From Candidatus Thorarchaeota archaeon (GTDB taxonomy: Archaea; Asgardarchaeota; Thorarchaeia; Thorarchaeales; Thorarchaeaceae): 28,178 bases of DNA. The DNA lies in contig JBHLQM010000048.1 in assembly GCA_048884785.1 (NCBI GenBank), positions 1 through 28,178 on the forward strand, written 5' to 3'. Positions 2,682 to 28,178 of the stretch are shown piece after piece. Each line of letters opens with the position of its first letter. Position 1 is the first letter of the stretch. Position numbers and translations under genes: made by a program. The notes beneath the pieces are model-generated. The model had not been told where the DNA came from. It worked only from the letters and a program-made list of their open reading frames with translations, and searched no databases.

Positions 2682-3245
2682 ATGCAGGACTTTATTGCTG
2701 ATTTTCTAGCTTGGTTTTCTCAGGCATTTGCAATATTTGCTGACCCTCCCTACTCAGCATTGTTCATTATGGCTGTTTCAGTCATGGTGACAAGCATTAG
2801 CCAGCTAGCCACAAGGCGATTCACAGACATGCGCCGCTTAAAGAGATATCAAGCTGAAATAAAGCAGTTTCAAGCAATGCAGAAAGAAGCAGAGAAAACG
2901 CAGAATGAAAAGCTCCTGAAAAAGGTGCGACGACGCAAGGCATACATTGATCGAATTCAACGGGAGAGTATGACCGATAGATGCAAGCCATCTCTGCTAT
3001 TCATGATTCCATTTCTTGCTATTTTCACGCTACTAAGATCATTCTATATTGACCCTGTCACGGGGATTGACAGAATAGTAGTTGTTCTCCCATTCAATGT
3101 TACAAAATTACTTCCATTTCTTGAAGGCGTTGCGGGAGTTCCAACCGCGGCCGGATTCGGGATGACGTTCTATGCATTCTATTTCTTGGTTGGCCTTGGA
3201 TTGAGTAGCATTATGCAAAGGATATTTGGAACGCAGATTATGTAG
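2682..3245 (+). CDS. DUF106 / EMC3-TMCO1-Get1 (Oxa1 superfamily) membrane insertase
   Basis: TM1, then a coiled-coil (RRLKRYQAEIKQFQ...), KP..F.IP and TM2, then TM3 FY.L. Occupies the canonical position after adk. Confidence 0.88.
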   Translation: MQDFIADFLAWFSQAFAIFADPPYSALFIMAVSVMVTSISQLATRRFTDMRRLKRYQAEIKQFQAMQKEAEKTQNEKLLKKVRRRKAYIDRIQRESMTDRCKPSLLFMIPFLAIFTLLRSFYIDPVTGIDRIVVVLPFNVTKLLPFLEGVAGVPTAAGFGMTFYAFYFLVGLGLSSIMQRIFGTQIM

Positions 3246-10294: not shown

Positions 10295-10723
10295 ATGCCG
10301 CGCGAAAAAAGTGATGATGGTAGTAGTCCTACCGCCGAAGAACCGGATTTAGGCCCCTCAGTTTTAGCATCAGTGCCTGAGGTACTAAGAGCCAAGCTGA
10401 GAGAGTCCATTATCGAGTCTGAAAAGAACAAATCATCAACTCTAATATCAAGTAATACTCTGGCAAACAGCTTCATCTTTGAACGATGGGGGATTCGGTC
10501 CTCACAGCGACGAAGGTATCGCAACCTGTTTTCTCAGGTTCGGCGCCAGTGCAGAAATGTATTCCGTCATTACCTCCAGCGTGGATGGCTAGAAGTGAAA
10601 GACGAGTCGAAGAAACATACATTTGGAGTCTACAAATATGACGACAAGAGAGGAAATTTGATACTTGGGTTCGTCCGCATGGCTCCCGGATCAGAATGGA
10701 GGGTTCGTTCTGCTGCTGGTTAA
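10295..10723 (+). CDS. Hypothetical basic protein (possible nucleic-acid binder)
   Basis: 142-aa ATG ORF with an upstream tctataag TATA-like element. Arg-rich helix followed by a beta-hairpin. No family recognised. Confidence 0.6.
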   Translation: MPREKSDDGSSPTAEEPDLGPSVLASVPEVLRAKLRESIIESEKNKSSTLISSNTLANSFIFERWGIRSSQRRRYRNLFSQVRRQCRNVFRHYLQRGWLEVKDESKKHTFGVYKYDDKRGNLILGFVRMAPGSEWRVRSAAG

Positions 10724-11643
10724 TCTTGCGAATCATCCGCATCGATATCTTCTTCATCAATGAATCTTAGAAGTTCATCTGCTGGTACATCCGGAACAGC
10801 CACATTGACATGCTTGGCGGCTGTATTCAAAAGAATCCTAAGAATGTCATCTCTATATGCAAGATCCACGGCTACCATGGGATGGGTTTCAGCTCCGACG
10901 ATTCTTTCTATTATTGATGAGTCAAGTGCATTTGGCTTGTCTTGTTTATTGGCAATCACTACTATTGGAACATTGGGTGCATCACGCCTTATCATCTGAA
11001 ACATTTCTTTTGATAGCAATACATTCCTCAACGTTGAATCTGTCAATAGAAAAACCATGTCTGCACCCTTGAAATAGAACTTCCAGAGCCTTCTGAATCT
11101 CTCTTGTCCGGCAAAGTCCCATATTACGAGCGAATAATTGGCGAAGTGGATATTCTCAATTGTTTCCATCCCTAGCGCTATGGTTGGTATGTATTGCTTT
11201 GGCGGAGATTTTCCCATGAGAAGGTGCAGGGTAGTAGTTTTACCAACTCCACCCTCTCCAACCAAGGCGATTTTCAGGCGCGAGTGAACAAAGGGTGTGA
11301 TTATTCTCTCATATGTCGCTTTTATGTGAGCCACTGAAGATTTCTTTAACGTATTTGATAATGACTTTGCTGCTGCACTCACCTTCTCATTCAATACACG
11401 GTCGTTTTCGTCAAAATCAGTGATGAATATTAGAAGCAGGTCATTGCCGCAATCCCTGCTGTAGTACTTATTATCATTGATTGTCAGAGGAATATCTTCT
11501 CGCCCATGAGAAACCTTGCTCAGTGTTGAACGCATCTTCAGATATTCTCGTATATCACTTCTAGGAACCTCAGTAGTCCAGTACTGTGATCCCACTACTG
11601 TTCGCTTGCTCTTTGTGCGAATCAGAAGTGTTGTATGTATCAC
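10720..11643 (-). CDS. Longin-like domain fused to an Arf-like small GTPase
   Basis: The N-terminal ~115 aa have a longin-like pattern (LLI..., KYYSR....LLLIFITD..E). The C-terminal GTPase has GEGGVGKTT, PTI, WDFAGQERFRRLW..YF and NKQD. Confidence 0.85.
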   Translation of the reverse strand: MIHTTLLIRTKSKRTVVGSQYWTTEVPRSDIREYLKMRSTLSKVSHGREDIPLTINDNKYYSRDCGNDLLLIFITDFDENDRVLNEKVSAAAKSLSNTLKKSSVAHIKATYERIITPFVHSRLKIALVGEGGVGKTTTLHLLMGKSPPKQYIPTIALGMETIENIHFANYSLVIWDFAGQERFRRLWKFYFKGADMVFLLTDSTLRNVLLSKEMFQMIRRDAPNVPIVVIANKQDKPNALDSSIIERIVGAETHPMVAVDLAYRDDILRILLNTAAKHVNVAVPDVPADELLRFIDEEDIDADDSQD

Positions 11644-15334: not shown

Positions 15335-16702
15335 TCATGCTAGGTCAAGAGGTATGTCTTTCCGACTAGCTTCGTTCCTACAAACGCCGTATGTTCTAAC
15401 ATCAAAAAAAGTGGCGTTGAATATCCACTCCTTCTTGGTAGTATCATACAGGGAACTTACTGGAAGGTGATTACTGGCTCCTGCGGACACCTCGTAGGCC
15501 ACAAAGTCGTCTGCACGGGACTTTTCAGTCATTAAGACCTCTAAGAGGTCCCTCGCTGTGCCGGCTGGTAGCGCAGTTGCAAAGACTATCTTTTTCTCAG
15601 AGCGATTCTCCAAGTTTGTTATCTGTGAGGTGTAGGTCAGCGGAAGTTCTGCCCATGCATGTATGATATTTCCAGCAGCCTCTGGACTAAAGATCCCAAT
15701 TATCCTATCACTAAGACGTGGGATTGTGATCTTTGGCCTTGGTCTGACAATTCCCTCATTAACAATTCGAGCCCTCTTTCTGAATGTTGTGCTCTCAGAA
15801 AGACCAGTTTCCTTTGCTAGTTGTTGGGCAGTCATGTCAAAGTCTTCAATCAGAGTTTCTATAATCTTGGTTTCGGATGATTTGAAACGCTGGGGGAATC
15901 GAACCTCGCCAACAGGAAAAGAGCCCACAGTTAGTCCCTTCCCGCCTGCACGCAAAAGCAGCCTAAAGTGGAGTGCGTCAAAATCAAATCTCCTTTTTGC
16001 AGCATTGAAGTATGCCGAGCCAAATCTGGGCAGACCTGCTGACAGAATCCATACTGTTGTATTATCGCTGGCAGATCGCAGTGTCTTGATTGTCTGAAGA
16101 AAATCATCCCTTCGTTTGCTTGGAATGAGGCCTTTGAGAAACACATACCTTGTAGATCCGTCCACATACAGAAATCGAGTGAAGTAGGGGGAGTTTAGGA
16201 CTCCAGTTGGATTTTCGCTTATGATAAGAATCCTGTCCAAACCAAGGGAAACCGCATCCACACGTCCCTCCCTGCGAAGCACCGTTGTTGACCTTAGATG
16301 TTCCATTGCTCTTCTGGTCTTATTATAATTCAGACCGATACTCTTGGCAAGTTCACTGAGACCCAGTTCCGGTTCTTTGAGCACACCTTCGAGTACTGTC
16401 AGTTCTGTCTTTGTCAGTCTTGAAATGTTCTGTTCCCACAAATCCCTAATTAGCTCGAGTAGATCTCGCTGCGTGATGATTTTTACTCCTCCGCGAGAAA
16501 CGAGCAGTCGCAGGCGCCGTAGGGTCTTATTGTAGAGACCACCTCTATAGGTCTTCACCCAAATCTTGAGACTGTCTAGCTCTGGGTCCTCCTGAAAGAT
16601 GTCTAGACTCTGATTCTGTTCTACATTGCGGAGAATCCTCAGTACAGCTTTGGCCGATGGAGAAAGATAATTCTCATAATCACGAGAGTCCGAATCAGCC
16701 AT
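15335..16702 (-). CDS. Tandem Lrp/AsnC-like winged-helix protein (two wHTH plus alpha/beta modules)
   Basis: HTH1 LSELAKSIGLNYNKTRRAMEHL and HTH2 AQQLAKETGLSESTTFRKRARI, each followed by a ~130-aa alpha/beta module. An alternative GTG start lies at 16714. Confidence 0.75.
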   Translation of the reverse strand: MADSDSRDYENYLSPSAKAVLRILRNVEQNQSLDIFQEDPELDSLKIWVKTYRGGLYNKTLRRLRLLVSRGGVKIITQRDLLELIRDLWEQNISRLTKTELTVLEGVLKEPELGLSELAKSIGLNYNKTRRAMEHLRSTTVLRREGRVDAVSLGLDRILIISENPTGVLNSPYFTRFLYVDGSTRYVFLKGLIPSKRRDDFLQTIKTLRSASDNTTVWILSAGLPRFGSAYFNAAKRRFDFDALHFRLLLRAGGKGLTVGSFPVGEVRFPQRFKSSETKIIETLIEDFDMTAQQLAKETGLSESTTFRKRARIVNEGIVRPRPKITIPRLSDRIIGIFSPEAAGNIIHAWAELPLTYTSQITNLENRSEKKIVFATALPAGTARDLLEVLMTEKSRADDFVAYEVSAGASNHLPVSSLYDTTKKEWIFNATFFDVRTYGVCRNEASRKDIPLDLA

Positions 16703-16840
16703 TTTAGTTTCCACTTCCTTGACAATTGTCAGCTGTCCTCATCTCCAAATAGATTCTAGTAATATCAAAAATAGATTCTCGTAATTGAATATAAGTCGCC
16801 ATAATTCTGGAAACACCGGAGGCGATAGCAGCCAATCTGA

Positions 16841-23047: not shown

Positions 23048-23181
23048 ACAGGCATCTCTCAAGTCCTAGATGGTGCATCTCTGTTTACATATGCCTCTCT
23101 TAAGCGATATTGTATTCCAGCAATTCATCCGACTTTAGTTTATACATGAAGAATGAGTCATGAATTTTCAGTGGTTTGATT

Positions 23182-23781
23182 ATGAAGCAAATAGAGGTAT
23201 ATCATATCCAGAAAGGCAACTTGGTGAAAGTGAAAGATCCGGGCGCTTTTGGAAGAGGTGACTGTTATTTGGTTGATGCTTTTCCCAAGTTATACATCTG
23301 GATCGGGCCGAAGAGTTCTGTGGATGAGAAGTTCCTTGCTGCCGCAGAAGCCGTCTTCAAGGATACTGCAATGAAGGGGCATGCCGACATAGATCATATT
23401 GATGGCGGAAATGAGCCTGAGGCGTTCAAAGCACTATTTGATAATTTTAGGCTCACAGATGAGGACACCGCAGGGATCCTAAGGAAAGTTCAGCTGGAGA
23501 CTCATGAATACAAATTATGGAGAGTTCATCGAGAGGGTGACGAAACTTTCTTCGCAGAAGTTCCAGTTTCTCGAAGTTCTCTCAAGAGCGATGATGTATT
23601 CGTTCTTGATACTTGGGATGACATCTTTGTCTGGAGAGGTAGAAATGCTTCTGCCAGAGAAAAGTTCGATGGAACAATGATAGCTCGAAGATATGATGCT
23701 GAGAGAGTTGGTGTTCAAGAGATAGAGCTCATTGAAGAAGGCGCCGAACCCGAAGATTTTCTCAGAGCTTTCGTGAGATAA
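23182..23781 (+). CDS. Two-domain gelsolin-like protein (Asgard 2DGel type)
   Basis: Two gelsolin repeats: F..GDCYLVD...LYIWIG.KSS.DEK..A ...EPEAF, and SSLKSDDVFVLD..DIFVWRG..AS..EK ...EEGAEPEDF. Confidence 0.9.
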   Translation: MKQIEVYHIQKGNLVKVKDPGAFGRGDCYLVDAFPKLYIWIGPKSSVDEKFLAAAEAVFKDTAMKGHADIDHIDGGNEPEAFKALFDNFRLTDEDTAGILRKVQLETHEYKLWRVHREGDETFFAEVPVSRSSLKSDDVFVLDTWDDIFVWRGRNASAREKFDGTMIARRYDAERVGVQEIELIEEGAEPEDFLRAFVR

Positions 23782-25218
23782 TCAGACCAGTCTAAAATGA
23801 CCATTTTTGGGCTCATATACGAGCCCATCATCCTTCATCTGTGTCAGTGTGAGTGCGGCTTTGTGTTGTTCCAGTCCGGCCTCTTCAGCAACCTCACTTA
23901 ATGTTGGTCCTAGACTACCTCTCTTCCCAGTGTCAAGTTTCTGAAGAGCTCGCACTACTTTCGTGTTATACCTGTCAAGACGGGTCCGTTCTCCCCACTG
24001 TTTTTCAGATAGACCCTTTATCTCAGAGATCTCAATGAATTCTCTCAGAGCAGGCTCTAGAACCTTGTCCCACGAACTCTTCAGGTCTTTTGCGGTGACC
24101 TTTTCCTTCCAATATGCTCTTGCAGATGACCTAGCAAGTTTAATCGCACTAAGTGGCCTACCTAGTTCATTTGCATCAAGAATACTACCTCTCGAGATTG
24201 AACCTTCATCGAGTCCAAAACTAGACCTAAGTACATCAATCCGCTCTTGGATATGCAAGAAGGCAGAGTCTATGCTTTTTTGAGATACTTGAGGAGTTAG
24301 TAATTGGAACGTAATAGCTGATTTCAGCACTGGGAGTTGGAGTTCTGAGGCATTCTTTGTTTCAACCCAGAAGTCCTCATTTGCAAGGGCAATAGGCACA
24401 TCTGGAAGAGTTGCAGTCGAGCTCTCGGTCAAGGCCGCCATCGAAACCTCAGAATATCCAGATGTATCCCTTCGGCCAAGACAAAGGTCTTCCATCTTCT
24501 TCCTTGAAACGCTGCCTGCTTCCATCCGCCATATTCGAGGCGTATCGACTCGAATTCCTCTGACCATTACCGATTTTCTTGAGGATTTCAATGATGGGGG
24601 AAGTATTCCCTTCATGAATCTGAATAGGCGATTCACTTGTTTTTGAGATGCAATAGCCTGAATTCCTGCCGTAAGCCCTCCTATTCTTTCCAGAATTGGG
24701 GGGCTCGATACATAGAGCTGTGAAAATACGCGTTTGCTTGCTTCTGCCATACCCACATTCTCAAAGATCATTCGAGAGAGTTCACTTAGTTTAGGCGGAC
24801 TTGAGATTATCGAACTGATGCTATGTTCAAGAGTTTCAATATTTTGGGCAATGATGGCTCTCATGGTTGTCTGTTCCGTCTCTAAGAGCCGAGGGATTAT
24901 TCCGTTAAATCCGGTTACTTCTATCCTTGCGCCATCTTGCGGATATGACATGTTTTCTCCAATATATACAAAGACTCCCTCAAGCAACCATGGACTAGGG
25001 GTGAGTAGTATGATGTAGGGATCCTGTGTATATCTAACAAATCCCCTATAGCATGAAGTCCTTGATGTTAATCTCTCACGAAATTGCTCGTGAAGCTCCT
25101 TTTCCCAGGCTGCAAGCTCTGAACCGAACTGCCTTTCAAAAACGTCCGCTGAGCCAACAGTGTCAGAAAGCCTATCCACTGACTCACCATATTTTCTCAG
25201 CAGTTCATCAATATCCAT
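23782..25218 (-). CDS. Divergent MCM-like protein with degenerate AAA+ motifs and a C-terminal winged helix
   Basis: PQDGARIEVTG resembles the MCM OB-fold PGD.V.VTG, followed by IAQNIE. VGMAEASKR resembles IYG.E.VK. Lid RPLSAIKLARSSARAYWKEKVTAKD resembles RQL..LIRLA.A.AR.....VT..D. WH ends LTQMKDDGLVYEPKNGHFRLV. No Walker A GxxxxGK[ST]. Likely start ATG 25218. Confidence 0.7.
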   Translation of the reverse strand: MDIDELLRKYGESVDRLSDTVGSADVFERQFGSELAAWEKELHEQFRERLTSRTSCYRGFVRYTQDPYIILLTPSPWLLEGVFVYIGENMSYPQDGARIEVTGFNGIIPRLLETEQTTMRAIIAQNIETLEHSISSIISSPPKLSELSRMIFENVGMAEASKRVFSQLYVSSPPILERIGGLTAGIQAIASQKQVNRLFRFMKGILPPSLKSSRKSVMVRGIRVDTPRIWRMEAGSVSRKKMEDLCLGRRDTSGYSEVSMAALTESSTATLPDVPIALANEDFWVETKNASELQLPVLKSAITFQLLTPQVSQKSIDSAFLHIQERIDVLRSSFGLDEGSISRGSILDANELGRPLSAIKLARSSARAYWKEKVTAKDLKSSWDKVLEPALREFIEISEIKGLSEKQWGERTRLDRYNTKVVRALQKLDTGKRGSLGPTLSEVAEEAGLEQHKAALTLTQMKDDGLVYEPKNGHFRLV

Positions 25219-25308
25219 CTGGGAATCCTTCCAGTACTGACTCTTCCAGCTTTCTTCCAATTGTAACGCTTTTCTAGATATGCACTCCACGGATATAAAG
25301 CGCCAATC

Positions 25309-26388
25309 CTACAGCAAATCTGATGGGTCTATGCCTCGGTTCATTGCCTTTTGAGTCATCCAATCCATGAGTCCCTTGGGCGGTTCGATTCTCTCTCCGC
25401 TTCTGTCAATAAGGGCAAGGGCATCCTCAGGACAGGTGATTGCGCAGACGCCACAACCAATGCATTTCTCAATATCCACAGTGCAAATATCCTCTGGTAC
25501 TGAGAGAGCATCGAATTGGCACCTTTCAACGCAGGTCTCACAACCAGTGCAGAGGTCTGCATCAACAGACATGATATAATCCGATTTAACAAATGCATGT
25601 GGCTGATTAGACTCTGCGACACCTCTGAGGATATTGCAGCAACAAGTGCAGCAATTACATATGTAATAATGCCCATCTTGTATATTCATTGTACAATGTA
25701 CCAAACCGGCTTCTTCGGTTTCCCGCAGTTTTTCCAGAGCTTCTTCTCGGGTGATTGCCTTGGTGAGTTCATCATGGTCAAAGACATTCTCTTTCTTTGC
25801 AAAGATAAGACAAACGGAGCTAGGATAGATGCACTTGTTATCGAGCAATTCCTGTTGCTTCTTACAAATGCATTCTCTCAGACCCCAAGCTTTTGCATTG
25901 TTAATCATGTCTTCTGCTATTTGATACGGCTTAATCTCCAACTCGGCCTTTACAACTCTATTAATAGGAATCACTTTGAATACTGCCGGTTCTGTATCAA
26001 AGAGCCCTTTGCCTTGCCCCTTGATGAAATAGTCTTCTGCACGTCTTGCAAATTCCTTGTCCATTCGGCCCAGCTGCTCCTCATATATTCCTACGGCAAA
26101 AGGTATGAGCGCATATCGCCGCCCTGTTGATGAGTTCCACGATCTAATCTGACCTTTTTCTGCCATTACTTTTAAGAGAGGTTCTAGATGACCTGAATCC
26201 TCCTCCAATCTCTCACTCATTTCTTCAATTGTTTCGCCCTTCAATTTCATTCTACTTGCAAGGTCTGCCTCCTCTTCAGTGAAAATCCATTGAAGGACCT
26301 TGATATGGCTGTCATCATCAACATGTGTGAAACTATTCGGAATCCTGTCCAGAACGGCAGCAAGTCGTTCCCAAGCACTCATTGTCAT
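25309..26388 (-). CDS. 4Fe-4S dicluster (polyferredoxin-like) protein with N-terminal helical domain
   Basis: CIC..., GLVHC, ICNCCTCCC, CTGCETCVERC, CIGCGVCAITCP. Start probably 26388 or 26382 rather than 26466. Confidence 0.88.
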   Translation of the reverse strand: MTMSAWERLAAVLDRIPNSFTHVDDDSHIKVLQWIFTEEEADLASRMKLKGETIEEMSERLEEDSGHLEPLLKVMAEKGQIRSWNSSTGRRYALIPFAVGIYEEQLGRMDKEFARRAEDYFIKGQGKGLFDTEPAVFKVIPINRVVKAELEIKPYQIAEDMINNAKAWGLRECICKKQQELLDNKCIYPSSVCLIFAKKENVFDHDELTKAITREEALEKLRETEEAGLVHCTMNIQDGHYYICNCCTCCCNILRGVAESNQPHAFVKSDYIMSVDADLCTGCETCVERCQFDALSVPEDICTVDIEKCIGCGVCAITCPEDALALIDRSGERIEPPKGLMDWMTQKAMNRGIDPSDLL

Positions 26389-26453
26389 ATCACTAAGGCT
26401 CCTATCTAAGAGTGGATACTCAAGTATATTCTCCCATATAATGTCTTGGACTG

Positions 26454-27818
26454 CTATTTGGAACATCTCAACAATATTCCCAAGGGGTCTAGCTCGATGT
26501 TGACTCTATTAATGACTTCTTCACAAGTCATTCCTTGCCCGAACAATACGTAAACCATGCACATTTGATATGGCGGAAGGAATAGCAGATTATTCGAGTT
26601 CAGAAGCTCCTTGTATTCCTTTCCAATATTCTCATCTATAAGATATGATTCGAGCTTCCTCAACGATACTTTATGATTCACAAGTAGACCAGCTATCTTT
26701 TCTAGGAACTCCTTTTTGGGCACTTTTGCGTCTTCTCCAAAAAATCGCGAAACATTTTCCTCAAACCACGCTCTCAGCCTGTCCGCAGAAACATCCGGGA
26801 CTATTATTGGTGTTTCGTCTTCTCCTTCTACGACTCGCACAAACCCTCTCTTTTCTGCCGCAAGAACGAAATCTGCAAGAGTTGGATATCCGAGCGCAAC
26901 ATAGTCTATTTCGTTCTTCTTCAGGTCATCTTTCATCTCATCAAGTGTTGGCGATAGCCCCTCATCCAATTTCCTTTCCACCACTTGACAGAGTGTTCTG
27001 AAGGCTCCTGTTGCTCGTTGTGTCAGAAGTATTCTGTCTTCTGTTATACTCTCAGGAATCACCAACACTGTGCCCGGTAATTCTCCCTCTCTCCGTACAT
27101 ATTCCTCGTATTCAGCCCAGTCGAGAAACTCATTCCAGCTTCGAAAGCCAAGGATCTTCTCTGAGAATGTTGGATTGAGCGCCGTCATCACGTGCTTGAC
27201 ATGCCCGACTCCTGGTTTGTTGCCAGAATCTTGAATCGCCCTGATTGCTTCCTGCAATCTTATGGCTGCGATAATCCGCATTTCCTCAACGCTCCCTATT
27301 AGTTTCCGGCAATCTTCCGGAGTTGAACATGGAAGTCGTGTCGTTCTAAAGGAGTGTATATCACTATATTGAGTAGCCAAATCTGTGAGTTCTGATGCTG
27401 TTATGATTGGATTGCTGATCACCCACAGTTTAAACCCTCTCTCCTTTAGTGCTCCCGCGAGTAGCTTGAAATCACCATCTCCCGACACCAAAACATATTG
27501 TTGAGTCTCTGGATAGCGCACCATATGCTCGAGAATATATGAAGCCATCTTGTAGTCTGTTGCATTTTCTTTAGAATCAGGAATGTGAATCAAATCGTAT
27601 CCCAGCTGATGCAGGTTCTCTGCTATCTTCCTCCTAGTATCCCAGTCCGCGAACGCGTACGCCCGTATGACCTGACTATGTTCATGGATAGCTTCTGTCA
27701 TCTTTATGTGTGTGGCGGGTTCATCATGCACATTCTCGATATCCCAAAATACTGCAATGTTGAGGACATCAGTATCTTTTGCGTATGAAGTATTGGGATT
27801 CGGCACGCTTGTCACCAT
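26454..27818 (-). CDS. NYN (LabA/DUF88, PIN-like) RNase with two LOTUS/OST-HTH domains
   Basis: FWDIENV, KENATD, LVSGDGDF form the acidic active site. LOTUS-like segments are P.FSEKILGFRSWNEFL and DYVALGYPTLADFV. Likely start ATG 27818. Confidence 0.85.
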   Translation of the reverse strand: MVTSVPNPNTSYAKDTDVLNIAVFWDIENVHDEPATHIKMTEAIHEHSQVIRAYAFADWDTRRKIAENLHQLGYDLIHIPDSKENATDYKMASYILEHMVRYPETQQYVLVSGDGDFKLLAGALKERGFKLWVISNPIITASELTDLATQYSDIHSFRTTRLPCSTPEDCRKLIGSVEEMRIIAAIRLQEAIRAIQDSGNKPGVGHVKHVMTALNPTFSEKILGFRSWNEFLDWAEYEEYVRREGELPGTVLVIPESITEDRILLTQRATGAFRTLCQVVERKLDEGLSPTLDEMKDDLKKNEIDYVALGYPTLADFVLAAEKRGFVRVVEGEDETPIIVPDVSADRLRAWFEENVSRFFGEDAKVPKKEFLEKIAGLLVNHKVSLRKLESYLIDENIGKEYKELLNSNNLLFLPPYQMCMVYVLFGQGMTCEEVINRVNIELDPLGILLRCSK

Positions 27819-28178
27819 CTGAAGAAGACCAATTCTCACTGATAAGCTATAGGGAGAGGTATTTCCTCTTGAGAAATCTGAATCTCTTGGTTTGTTTGCA
27901 TTATAGATGTGGTGGAACTTGCTGGTTACATGGATTTTGAACAGATAATATTGAGCGAGATTGAGGAAATAGATGAAACCTATTCTAGTACCTATACTTC
28001 GGATCACAAAGTATACCGAGAGAGTGAAGTGATTTACTATAGCACTCTATTAGGGCTTCCAAACGAGCTAATCTCACTAATATATGAGCACTATGGACAC
28101 TATTTAGGCTCTATCAGCTCTCGGAATTCTCAATGCACGGAGTGGTTGACCAGGTTTCTTCAGACGGAATGGGCAAGA

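Follow-up and report, generated by a model that had tools for sequence, protein, structure and literature searches.

In the stretch of DNA analysed here (the window: 28,178 nucleotides (nt), positions 1 to 28,178 of contig JBHLQM010000048.1 in the Candidatus Thorarchaeota archaeon assembly GCA_048884785.1), a minus-strand gene at 23782..25218 encodes a protein of 478 residues that is, very probably, a derivative of the MCM helicase deprived of its ATPase (hereafter, dead MCM). The family to which it belongs probably assists or regulates DNA replication or repair without being a catalyst, and no description of it was returned when the literature was searched in full text for Asgard proteins that are inactive MCMs or resemble MCM. 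Replication in Archaea is usually described as relying on one active homohexameric MCM, together with GINS and a RecJ/Cdc45-like protein and, to our knowledge, no Cdt1- or MCM-BP-like accessory factor has been established outside some Crenarchaeota. Dead MCM adds to this picture a second protein of MCM descent, one that lacks the motor and is fixed throughout an entire class of Asgard archaea, and it represents a candidate accessory factor that can be cloned.

The structure of the protein was modelled with AlphaFold2 by using an alignment of 58 sequences, which comprised close sequences and 39 distant relatives recovered by exhaustive searches of representatives and genomes. This model, with a predicted local distance difference test (pLDDT) of 84.4 and a predicted template modelling score of 0.77, replaced a poor one (pLDDT 54) obtained from 30 sequences of Thorarchaeia only. 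When compared to the PDB by Foldseek, it gave at least 500 matches; the best 50 were all MCM-containing entries, with a best E of 2.8e-14 and alignments of 420–600 columns. A VIA scan, which is a structure comparison independent of Foldseek, over 48,161 chains, placed only MCM-family proteins in the top 11 (Z 13.6–16.9, 229–305 residues aligned within model positions 33–403), including M. kandleri MCM2 (Z 16.5) and MCM8/9 (Z 15.9); after the MCM chains came the neighbouring AAA+ families, namely RavA (Z 11.7), a MoxR-like ATPase (Z 10.1) and BchI (Z 9.1). At the N-terminal side the MCM alignments begin at residue 45–51, in the OB region, which in the same scan also matched the OB fold of PriB (Z 8.4), and residues 413–478 matched many generic winged-helix domains (Z 8–9). 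Taken together, AlphaFold2, Foldseek and VIA indicate that the fold is that of MCM from the OB domain to the winged helix and, since MCMs occupy the top of the fold search and more than 200 homologs preserve the same order and motifs, the resemblance is not due to chance. The MCM-like order of domains (OB, AAA+, lid, winged helix) had been proposed in a previous sequence-only reading of this DNA, and the predicted structure bears it out: PQDGARIEVTG and IAQNIE fall in the OB strands 98–109 and 118–129 of the model; LSRMIFENVGMAEASKRVFSQL, which had been taken as the pre-ATPase helix, forms two helices (144–152 and 159–170) ahead of the first AAA+ strand; and GLVYEPKNGHF closes a winged helix of the type found in archaeal MCM. 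The features of the gene are as follows:

23782..25218, minus strand: coding sequence of the 478-residue, ATPase-dead MCM-like protein (open reading frame, full-length orthologs and dN/dS, the ratio of non-synonymous to synonymous substitution rates); stop codon at 23782-23784.
25087..25218, minus strand: N-terminal 44 residues replacing MCM subdomain A (conservation table; pLDDT 44–81, low confidence).
24823..25086, minus strand: minimal OB fold, residues 45–132, without the zinc-finger insert (pLDDT 80–93, six strands).
24349..24807, minus strand: degenerate AAA+ core, residues 138–290, with a short turn in place of the P-loop, no Walker B pair and a retained pre-sensor-1-like hairpin at 257–278 (VIA matches to MCMs over residues 45–400).
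23989..24348, minus strand: AAA+ lid, residues 291–410, with Arg354 at the sensor-2 position and the invariant Arg367 (hhalign, hmmsearch).
23785..23982, minus strand: archaeal-MCM-type C-terminal winged helix, residues 413–478 (PF21120, 2m45 and VIA matches).
25291..25300, minus strand: TATA-like box CTTTATATCC, read from the sequence, closely following the stop of the Fe-S gene, with ~70 nt between the box and the ATG.

A relationship to MCM was also found by sequence comparison. A search with the single sequence matched residues 355–478 to residues 556–682 of the MCM in PDB 8x7t (E 0.002), and a profile of Thorarchaeia sequences strengthened the MCM match to E 4e-6. With the profile of 58 sequences (hmmsearch) we obtained E 9e-10 for SsoMCM (4fdg), 4e-9 for 8x7t and 7e-8 for the winged helix of SsoMCM (2m45), the eukaryotic MCM7/MCM8 being weaker (E 0.003–0.01). 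Moreover, hhalign against six Asgard MCMs aligned residues ~290–473 to MCM positions 480–680 (probability 95.7–96.2%, E 1e-8 to 2e-9), which covers the entire lid plus the winged helix. In this region GRPLS is aligned with the (T)ARQLE motif of MCM, so that R354 occupies the sensor-2 position, and GRPLSAIKLARSSAR...VTAKD, which had been indicated as a lid with a sensor-2-like Arg, does align to the sensor-2/lid helix of MCM. On the basis of these alignments, we consider the lid and the winged helix homologous to those of archaeal MCM. The winged helix of the family (profile positions 386–472) also matches that of archaeal RPA32 (PDB 9f27/8oej), with E 5e-7 to 2e-5, almost as closely as that of MCM.

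The current family models do not capture this protein. None of the models in Pfam and NCBIfam recognises it, PF00493 being absent from the matches at E<=1; the best Pfam signal, below threshold, is the archaeal MCM winged helix PF21120 (E 0.016). The NCBIfam model for MCM, NF040949, gave 11.5 bits, over the C-terminal 120 residues only, against a cut-off of 940. The named homologs in the databases are called 'hypothetical protein', save two obviously misapplied automatic JGI labels.

A canonical MCM from the same genus carries GDPGTGKS, IDEFDKM, SRFD and a C4 finger. The 478-residue protein has none of them, and the absence of Walker B, arginine finger and C4 cluster had already been seen in the letters. 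At the Walker A place, GLTAGIQAIASQKQ, the pattern GDPxxxKS is missing: the strand 183–188 (TAGIQA) goes directly, within 3–4 residues, into the helix 192–205, with no GK[ST], and such a short passage leaves no phosphate-binding loop. At this place no conserved Lys or Ser/Thr was found across 58 members from all clades, and in the same members we observed neither a family-wide acidic pair or Arg in residues 226–237 or 292–311, as for Walker B and the SRFD finger, nor a conserved pair of acidic residues where the third strand of the model ends. In the model helix 2 with its insert also appears to be gone. As for the N-terminal tier, the helical subdomain A and the zinc finger of subdomain B are lacking: the OB fold spans only residues 45–132, with 44 residues before it, and the whole protein has only two Cys and no C4 cluster. 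On the other hand, the lid with the sensor-2 Arg/Lys (R/K354) and the C-terminal winged helix are retained, and this sensor-2-like residue is the sole remnant of the ATP site. The stretch 257–279 is as long as the pre-sensor-1 hairpin of MCM and, like it, begins with 'VS.A', but the DNA-contacting Lys of the hairpin is absent. Across the 58 diverse members G180, G181, E257 and R367 are invariant, and S171, P173, D273, P355, G59, P74, P93 and G103 nearly so. A further motif, R29/G32/E39 (residues 26–40, window 25099–25143), is conserved in >80% of the members in the N-terminal region, where the confidence of the model is low, and may be a partner-binding peptide. With the P-loop, Walker B and arginine finger lost, the protein would be unable, as judged from the model, to hydrolyse ATP in the way of MCM.

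The longest minus-strand open reading frame at this locus is 23782..25290, and the 478-residue form begins at the ATG at 25218. We accepted 23782-25218 as the coding sequence because more than 200 homologs share this start and a length of 478–483 residues, with M1 nearly invariant, and because a TATA-like box, as putative promoter element, and a Shine-Dalgarno-like site, GGAAGGA (25226-25232, 8 nt ahead of the ATG), are present upstream.

A search with the family profile found an intact, full-length copy in each of the Thorarchaeaceae genomes sampled (76/76). In the rest of the phylum (~225 Asgard genomes searched) only six have a copy, namely all those searched in one family (3/3) and one genome from each of three further families, and the other profile matches outside Thorarchaeaceae are the C-termini of real MCMs or proteins with the winged helix only. 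The named relatives come from Odinarchaeota, Methanomethylicaceae, Bathyarchaeota and 'Asgardarchaeia'; full-length matches were found in 8/251 Bathyarchaeia genomes, one of these matches being a fragment with stops, and in 8/401 sampled genomes of the phylum of Bathyarchaeia. The family, being present also in Bathyarchaeia and Methanomethylicaceae, is not specific to Asgard archaea. In a quick tree, the sequences of Thorarchaeia came together in a single clade with support 99, whose sister was another group of Asgard sequences, and two Asgard genomes clustered with the Methanomethylicaceae sequences; this disagreement with the taxonomy suggests that the gene has been transferred horizontally. 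No relatives were found in viral contigs with three alignments in a pattern-limited search, which is weak evidence against an origin from mobile elements. Between close pairs of Thorarchaeia orthologs dN/dS was 0.06–0.16 and, in two related Bathyarchaeia, it was 0.12 for dead MCM versus 0.03–0.05 for the neighbouring GINS, MCM and Hel308. Selection on dead MCM is therefore purifying, yet looser than on the core replisome. Since Walker A, Walker B, the arginine finger, the zinc finger and subdomain A are missing family-wide, this is not a decaying copy of an active gene.

The genomes of Thorarchaeia have one canonical MCM each; in one of them (G001) the MCM match is in three pieces inside an open frame of 1764 residues, as expected for inteins. 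A second putative paralog in the genome of the window (contig C129, L008:459-1925) was rejected, as it is a HEAT-like repeat protein of 488 residues that shares only the MCM-type winged helix. Similar HEAT-like open reading frames of ~485–516 residues, ending in an MCM-type winged helix, are carried by relatives.

The strongest functional link for the family is given by two Bathyarchaeia genomes, G392 (L062:8836-15168) and G400 (L063), in which dead MCM, GINS, MCM and Hel308 form a tight operon. Here dead MCM (483 residues) is followed with a 0-nt gap by GINS (199 residues, PSF2_N + Sld5), then, with an overlap of 8 nt, by an MCM of 678 residues that has all four MCM Pfam domains and, after 17 nt, by Hel308; the genes for the small and large subunits of RFC lie divergent upstream. 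In Methanomethylicaceae, dead MCM is beside Orc1/Cdc6, TFIIB and Cren7. In one Bathyarchaeota locus, recovered with a narrower alignment (a broad-alignment search of related loci found nothing), Cdc6 is 6.5 kb away and an AP endonuclease is nearby. In further relatives Mre11/Rad50 are just downstream of dead MCM, or the gene is beside ParB and an Exo5-like gene, or it has a UvrD-like open reading frame upstream, the latter read from translation only.

These contexts make a non-catalytic role in replication or repair, exerted with the MCM system, slightly the better bet among the possible functions. The protein is very probably a non-catalytic derivative of the archaeal replicative MCM, of which it has retained the OB tier, an AAA+ core typical of the pre-sensor-1-hairpin clade, the lid and the terminal winged helix; subdomain A and the zinc finger have been shed along with the P-loop, the Walker B motif and the arginine finger. 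Our proposal is that, beside the single active MCM, this protein might scaffold or regulate the replication or repair of DNA: lid, sensor-2 helix and winged helix, with the OB fold, would bind DNA and a replication partner, either MCM/GINS or Orc1/Cdc6, and this binding would modulate the loading or activity of the helicase. What is shown comprises the fold, the homology of lid and winged helix, the lost motifs, the selection, the distribution and the gene contexts; the partners that the protein would bind, and the sense in which it would act on the helicase, are inferred. According to a passage in PMC12141716, citing Samson et al. 2016, the winged helix of Sulfolobus MCM contacts Orc1-1 bound to ORB elements/the origin, and sensor 2 works in trans at the MCM subunit interfaces (PMC4619765). 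Since the lid with sensor 2 and the winged helix are the parts of dead MCM closest to MCM, docking on Orc1/Cdc6 or on an MCM neighbour is plausible by analogy. More specific versions of this role are doubtful. That the protein is directly incorporated into the MCM ring, or caps it, is rather unlikely; we would give a similarly low chance to an archaeal licensing or chaperone factor derived from a dead MCM subunit, in which lid and winged helix would dock on Orc1/Cdc6 or MCM/GINS and control the loading or unloading of the helicase. A prediction of the complex between residues 40–478 and residues 105–640 of a same-genus MCM, run with no controls, had a score of 0.00, which speaks neither for nor against binding, nor for the possible early step towards heteromeric MCM that the sequence-only reading had put forward.

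In Thorarchaeia the gene lies in a different neighbourhood, which in the window consists of the following genes:

25309-26466, minus strand: 4Fe-4S protein of 385 residues with two 4Fe-4S motifs (Pfam), upstream of and co-directional with dead MCM.
26454-28007, minus strand: protein with NYN ribonuclease-like and LOTUS/OST-HTH domains (Pfam), overlapping the 4Fe-4S gene by 13 nt.
23176..23781, plus strand: two-repeat gelsolin gene (Pfam Gelsolin, E 2e-25), convergent, abutting the stop codon of dead MCM.

The NYN-LOTUS and 4Fe-4S block is conserved across Thorarchaeia (synteny, 26 loci), in the order NYN-LOTUS, Fe-S protein, (methyltransferase), dead MCM and convergent gelsolin; the convergent pair is conserved in most of the loci, and the gelsolin-domain product is a eukaryotic signature protein. 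Elsewhere, the window contains two Ras/Arf small GTPases, one of which has a 120-residue N-terminal extension, and an EMC3/TMCO1-like membrane insertase (1351-1947, minus; 10720-11643, minus; 2682-3245, plus), which are typical eukaryote-like genes of Asgard archaea, and a 459-residue protein (15335-16714, minus) in which IclR, TrmB and HTH_24 are among several matches of the winged-helix/HTH kind, no further domain being recognised.

Several observations weigh against a dead MCM derivative working with the MCM system. As for the origin, hhalign of the AAA+ core alone gave no signal against MCM, and pairwise BLASTP gave no match with the MCM of the same genus or of the same operon; as the core has no sequence similarity to MCM, the catalytic positions were assigned from the secondary structure of the model and not from residue-level superposition. 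As for the role, in Thorarchaeia, including this window, the neighbours are Fe-S, NYN-LOTUS, gelsolin and Fpg genes and not MCM, GINS or Cdc6; the MCMs of G392 and G400 are 96.6% identical, so that the GINS-MCM-Hel308 operon represents one lineage only; and the remaining contexts outside Thorarchaeia vary, two being uninformative. Finally, a canonical MCM was not detected in this 91%-complete assembly; since it was found in all six same-genus genomes searched, the simplest explanation is a gap in the assembly.

The best surviving alternative starts from the same neighbourhood. An orphan N6/N4 DNA methyltransferase is directly upstream of dead MCM, on the same strand, in 23/26 Thorarchaeia loci, with a gap of 3–9 nt in two loci analysed in detail (L017:2941-3903 and L029:457-1431). 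The protein might thus be the DNA-binding or regulatory partner of a co-transcribed methyltransferase, and not of MCM, reading or organising methylated DNA in a SeqA-like manner; winged helix and OB fold are generic nucleic-acid binders and could be reused MCM modules. Three loci are exceptions to the adjacency, two from the genus of the window and a third whose flank is too short to tell. In the genome of the window the methyltransferase is intact on another contig (L068:1513-2454), between a GNAT gene and an FtsX-like gene, and dead MCM is still in its place. Moreover, the relatives outside Thorarchaeia do not have such an adjacent methyltransferase and sit by GINS-MCM, Cdc6 or Mre11/Rad50, and synteny inside one family may be mere inheritance. 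For these reasons we regard a partnership with the methyltransferase as unlikely.

It is even less likely that dead MCM forms a homo-oligomeric ring of its own, outside the MCM hexamer, acting as a passive DNA clamp or roadblock. In the model both the tiers that build the MCM ring, OB and AAA+/lid, appear to be kept, but the elements that stabilise the interfaces of MCM, namely subdomain A, the zinc finger and the nucleotide site, are missing, and M. kandleri MCM2 was reportedly crystallised as a monomer.

The sequence-only reading had instead suggested an archaeal counterpart of MCM-BP or MCMDC2. What is shared with these proteins is the idea of an ATPase-dead relative of MCM, Walker A and B of MCMDC2 being not conserved (PMC5070785). 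The segment YRGFVRYTQDP, compared in that reading to an MCM-BP motif, lies in the OB strand 54–64, and MCM_bind (PF09739) is not among the Pfam matches at E<=1, where HMMER filters may hide very weak ones; neither sequence nor profile comparison connected the protein with MCM-BP. At the sequence level it is most similar to the lid and winged helix of archaeal MCM, the matches to MCM7/MCM8 being the weaker ones given above, and a family fixed only in Thorarchaeia, and sporadic in TACK, fits poorly with vertical descent to eukaryotes. That the protein is truly orthologous to eukaryotic MCM-BP or MCMDC2, or directly ancestral to them, is thus very improbable. We give as little credit to a cryptic but active NTPase, which would use non-canonical residues (E257, D273, R367 and basic residues after strand 1 in distant members): there are a few invariant charged residues, and R/K354 at the sensor-2 position, but no phosphate-binding loop, and E257 and D273 are predicted at strand starts and not at the Walker B position. 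A decaying pseudogene or annotation artefact, for which the missing motifs and nothing further could be invoked, is refuted by the frame intact in all the Thorarchaeaceae, by the low dN/dS of their orthologs and by the confident fold.

If confirmed, dead MCM would be a living example of a homohexameric MCM system gaining a specialised non-catalytic paralog and, if it did serve in licensing or as a chaperone, the prokaryotic counterpart, in function, of Cdt1 or MCM-BP. An annotation gap that affects hundreds of genomes would be closed by a model of the family together with an initial biochemical assay.

In comparison with archaeal MCM (NF040949; PDB 4fdg, 8x7t, 4r7z), dead MCM has its domains in the same order, from the OB fold through an AAA+ core of the pre-sensor-1-hairpin clade and a lid that carries the sensor-2 Arg to the terminal winged helix; by contrast, it is ~210 residues shorter and its core is unrecognisable by sequence. 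Among the eukaryotic proteins, MCM-BP is non-catalytic, binds MCM3-7 and affects the dynamics of the MCM complex (PMC3335088), and dead MCM resembles it (Pfam PF09739 MCM_bind) in functional analogy only. In MCMDC2, and in Drosophila MEI-217 and MEI-218 (mei-MCM), Walker A and B are not conserved, and these proteins have been proposed to modulate a complex of an active MCM (MCM8) (PMC5070785). They are eukaryotic and meiosis-specific, the likeness being in the degenerate Walker motifs of MCM paralogs, and the loss of the ATPase in dead MCM was probably independent.

The nearest precedent is archaeal. The premise that inactive relatives of MCM are only eukaryotic, on which the sequence-only reading relied, does not stand, as M. 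kandleri MCM2 is a published, naturally inactive archaeal MCM with a non-conserved Walker A, internal deletions and missing hairpins (PMC2933578). An inactive archaeal MCM is thus already known, and it is the family described here that is uncharacterised. In structure the two are alike: M. kandleri MCM2 (3f8t) is among the best matches of dead MCM, with 298 residues aligned at the Z given above, and the match stops at the lid, with no winged helix matched. In sequence, the relationship was undetected, our profile giving E 0.85 against 3f8t over 40 lid residues only. In addition, M. kandleri MCM2 is known from one euryarchaeon, whereas the dead-MCM family is fixed in Thorarchaeia and scattered in Asgard and TACK archaea; the ATPase of MCM paralogs would have been lost more than once in Archaea.

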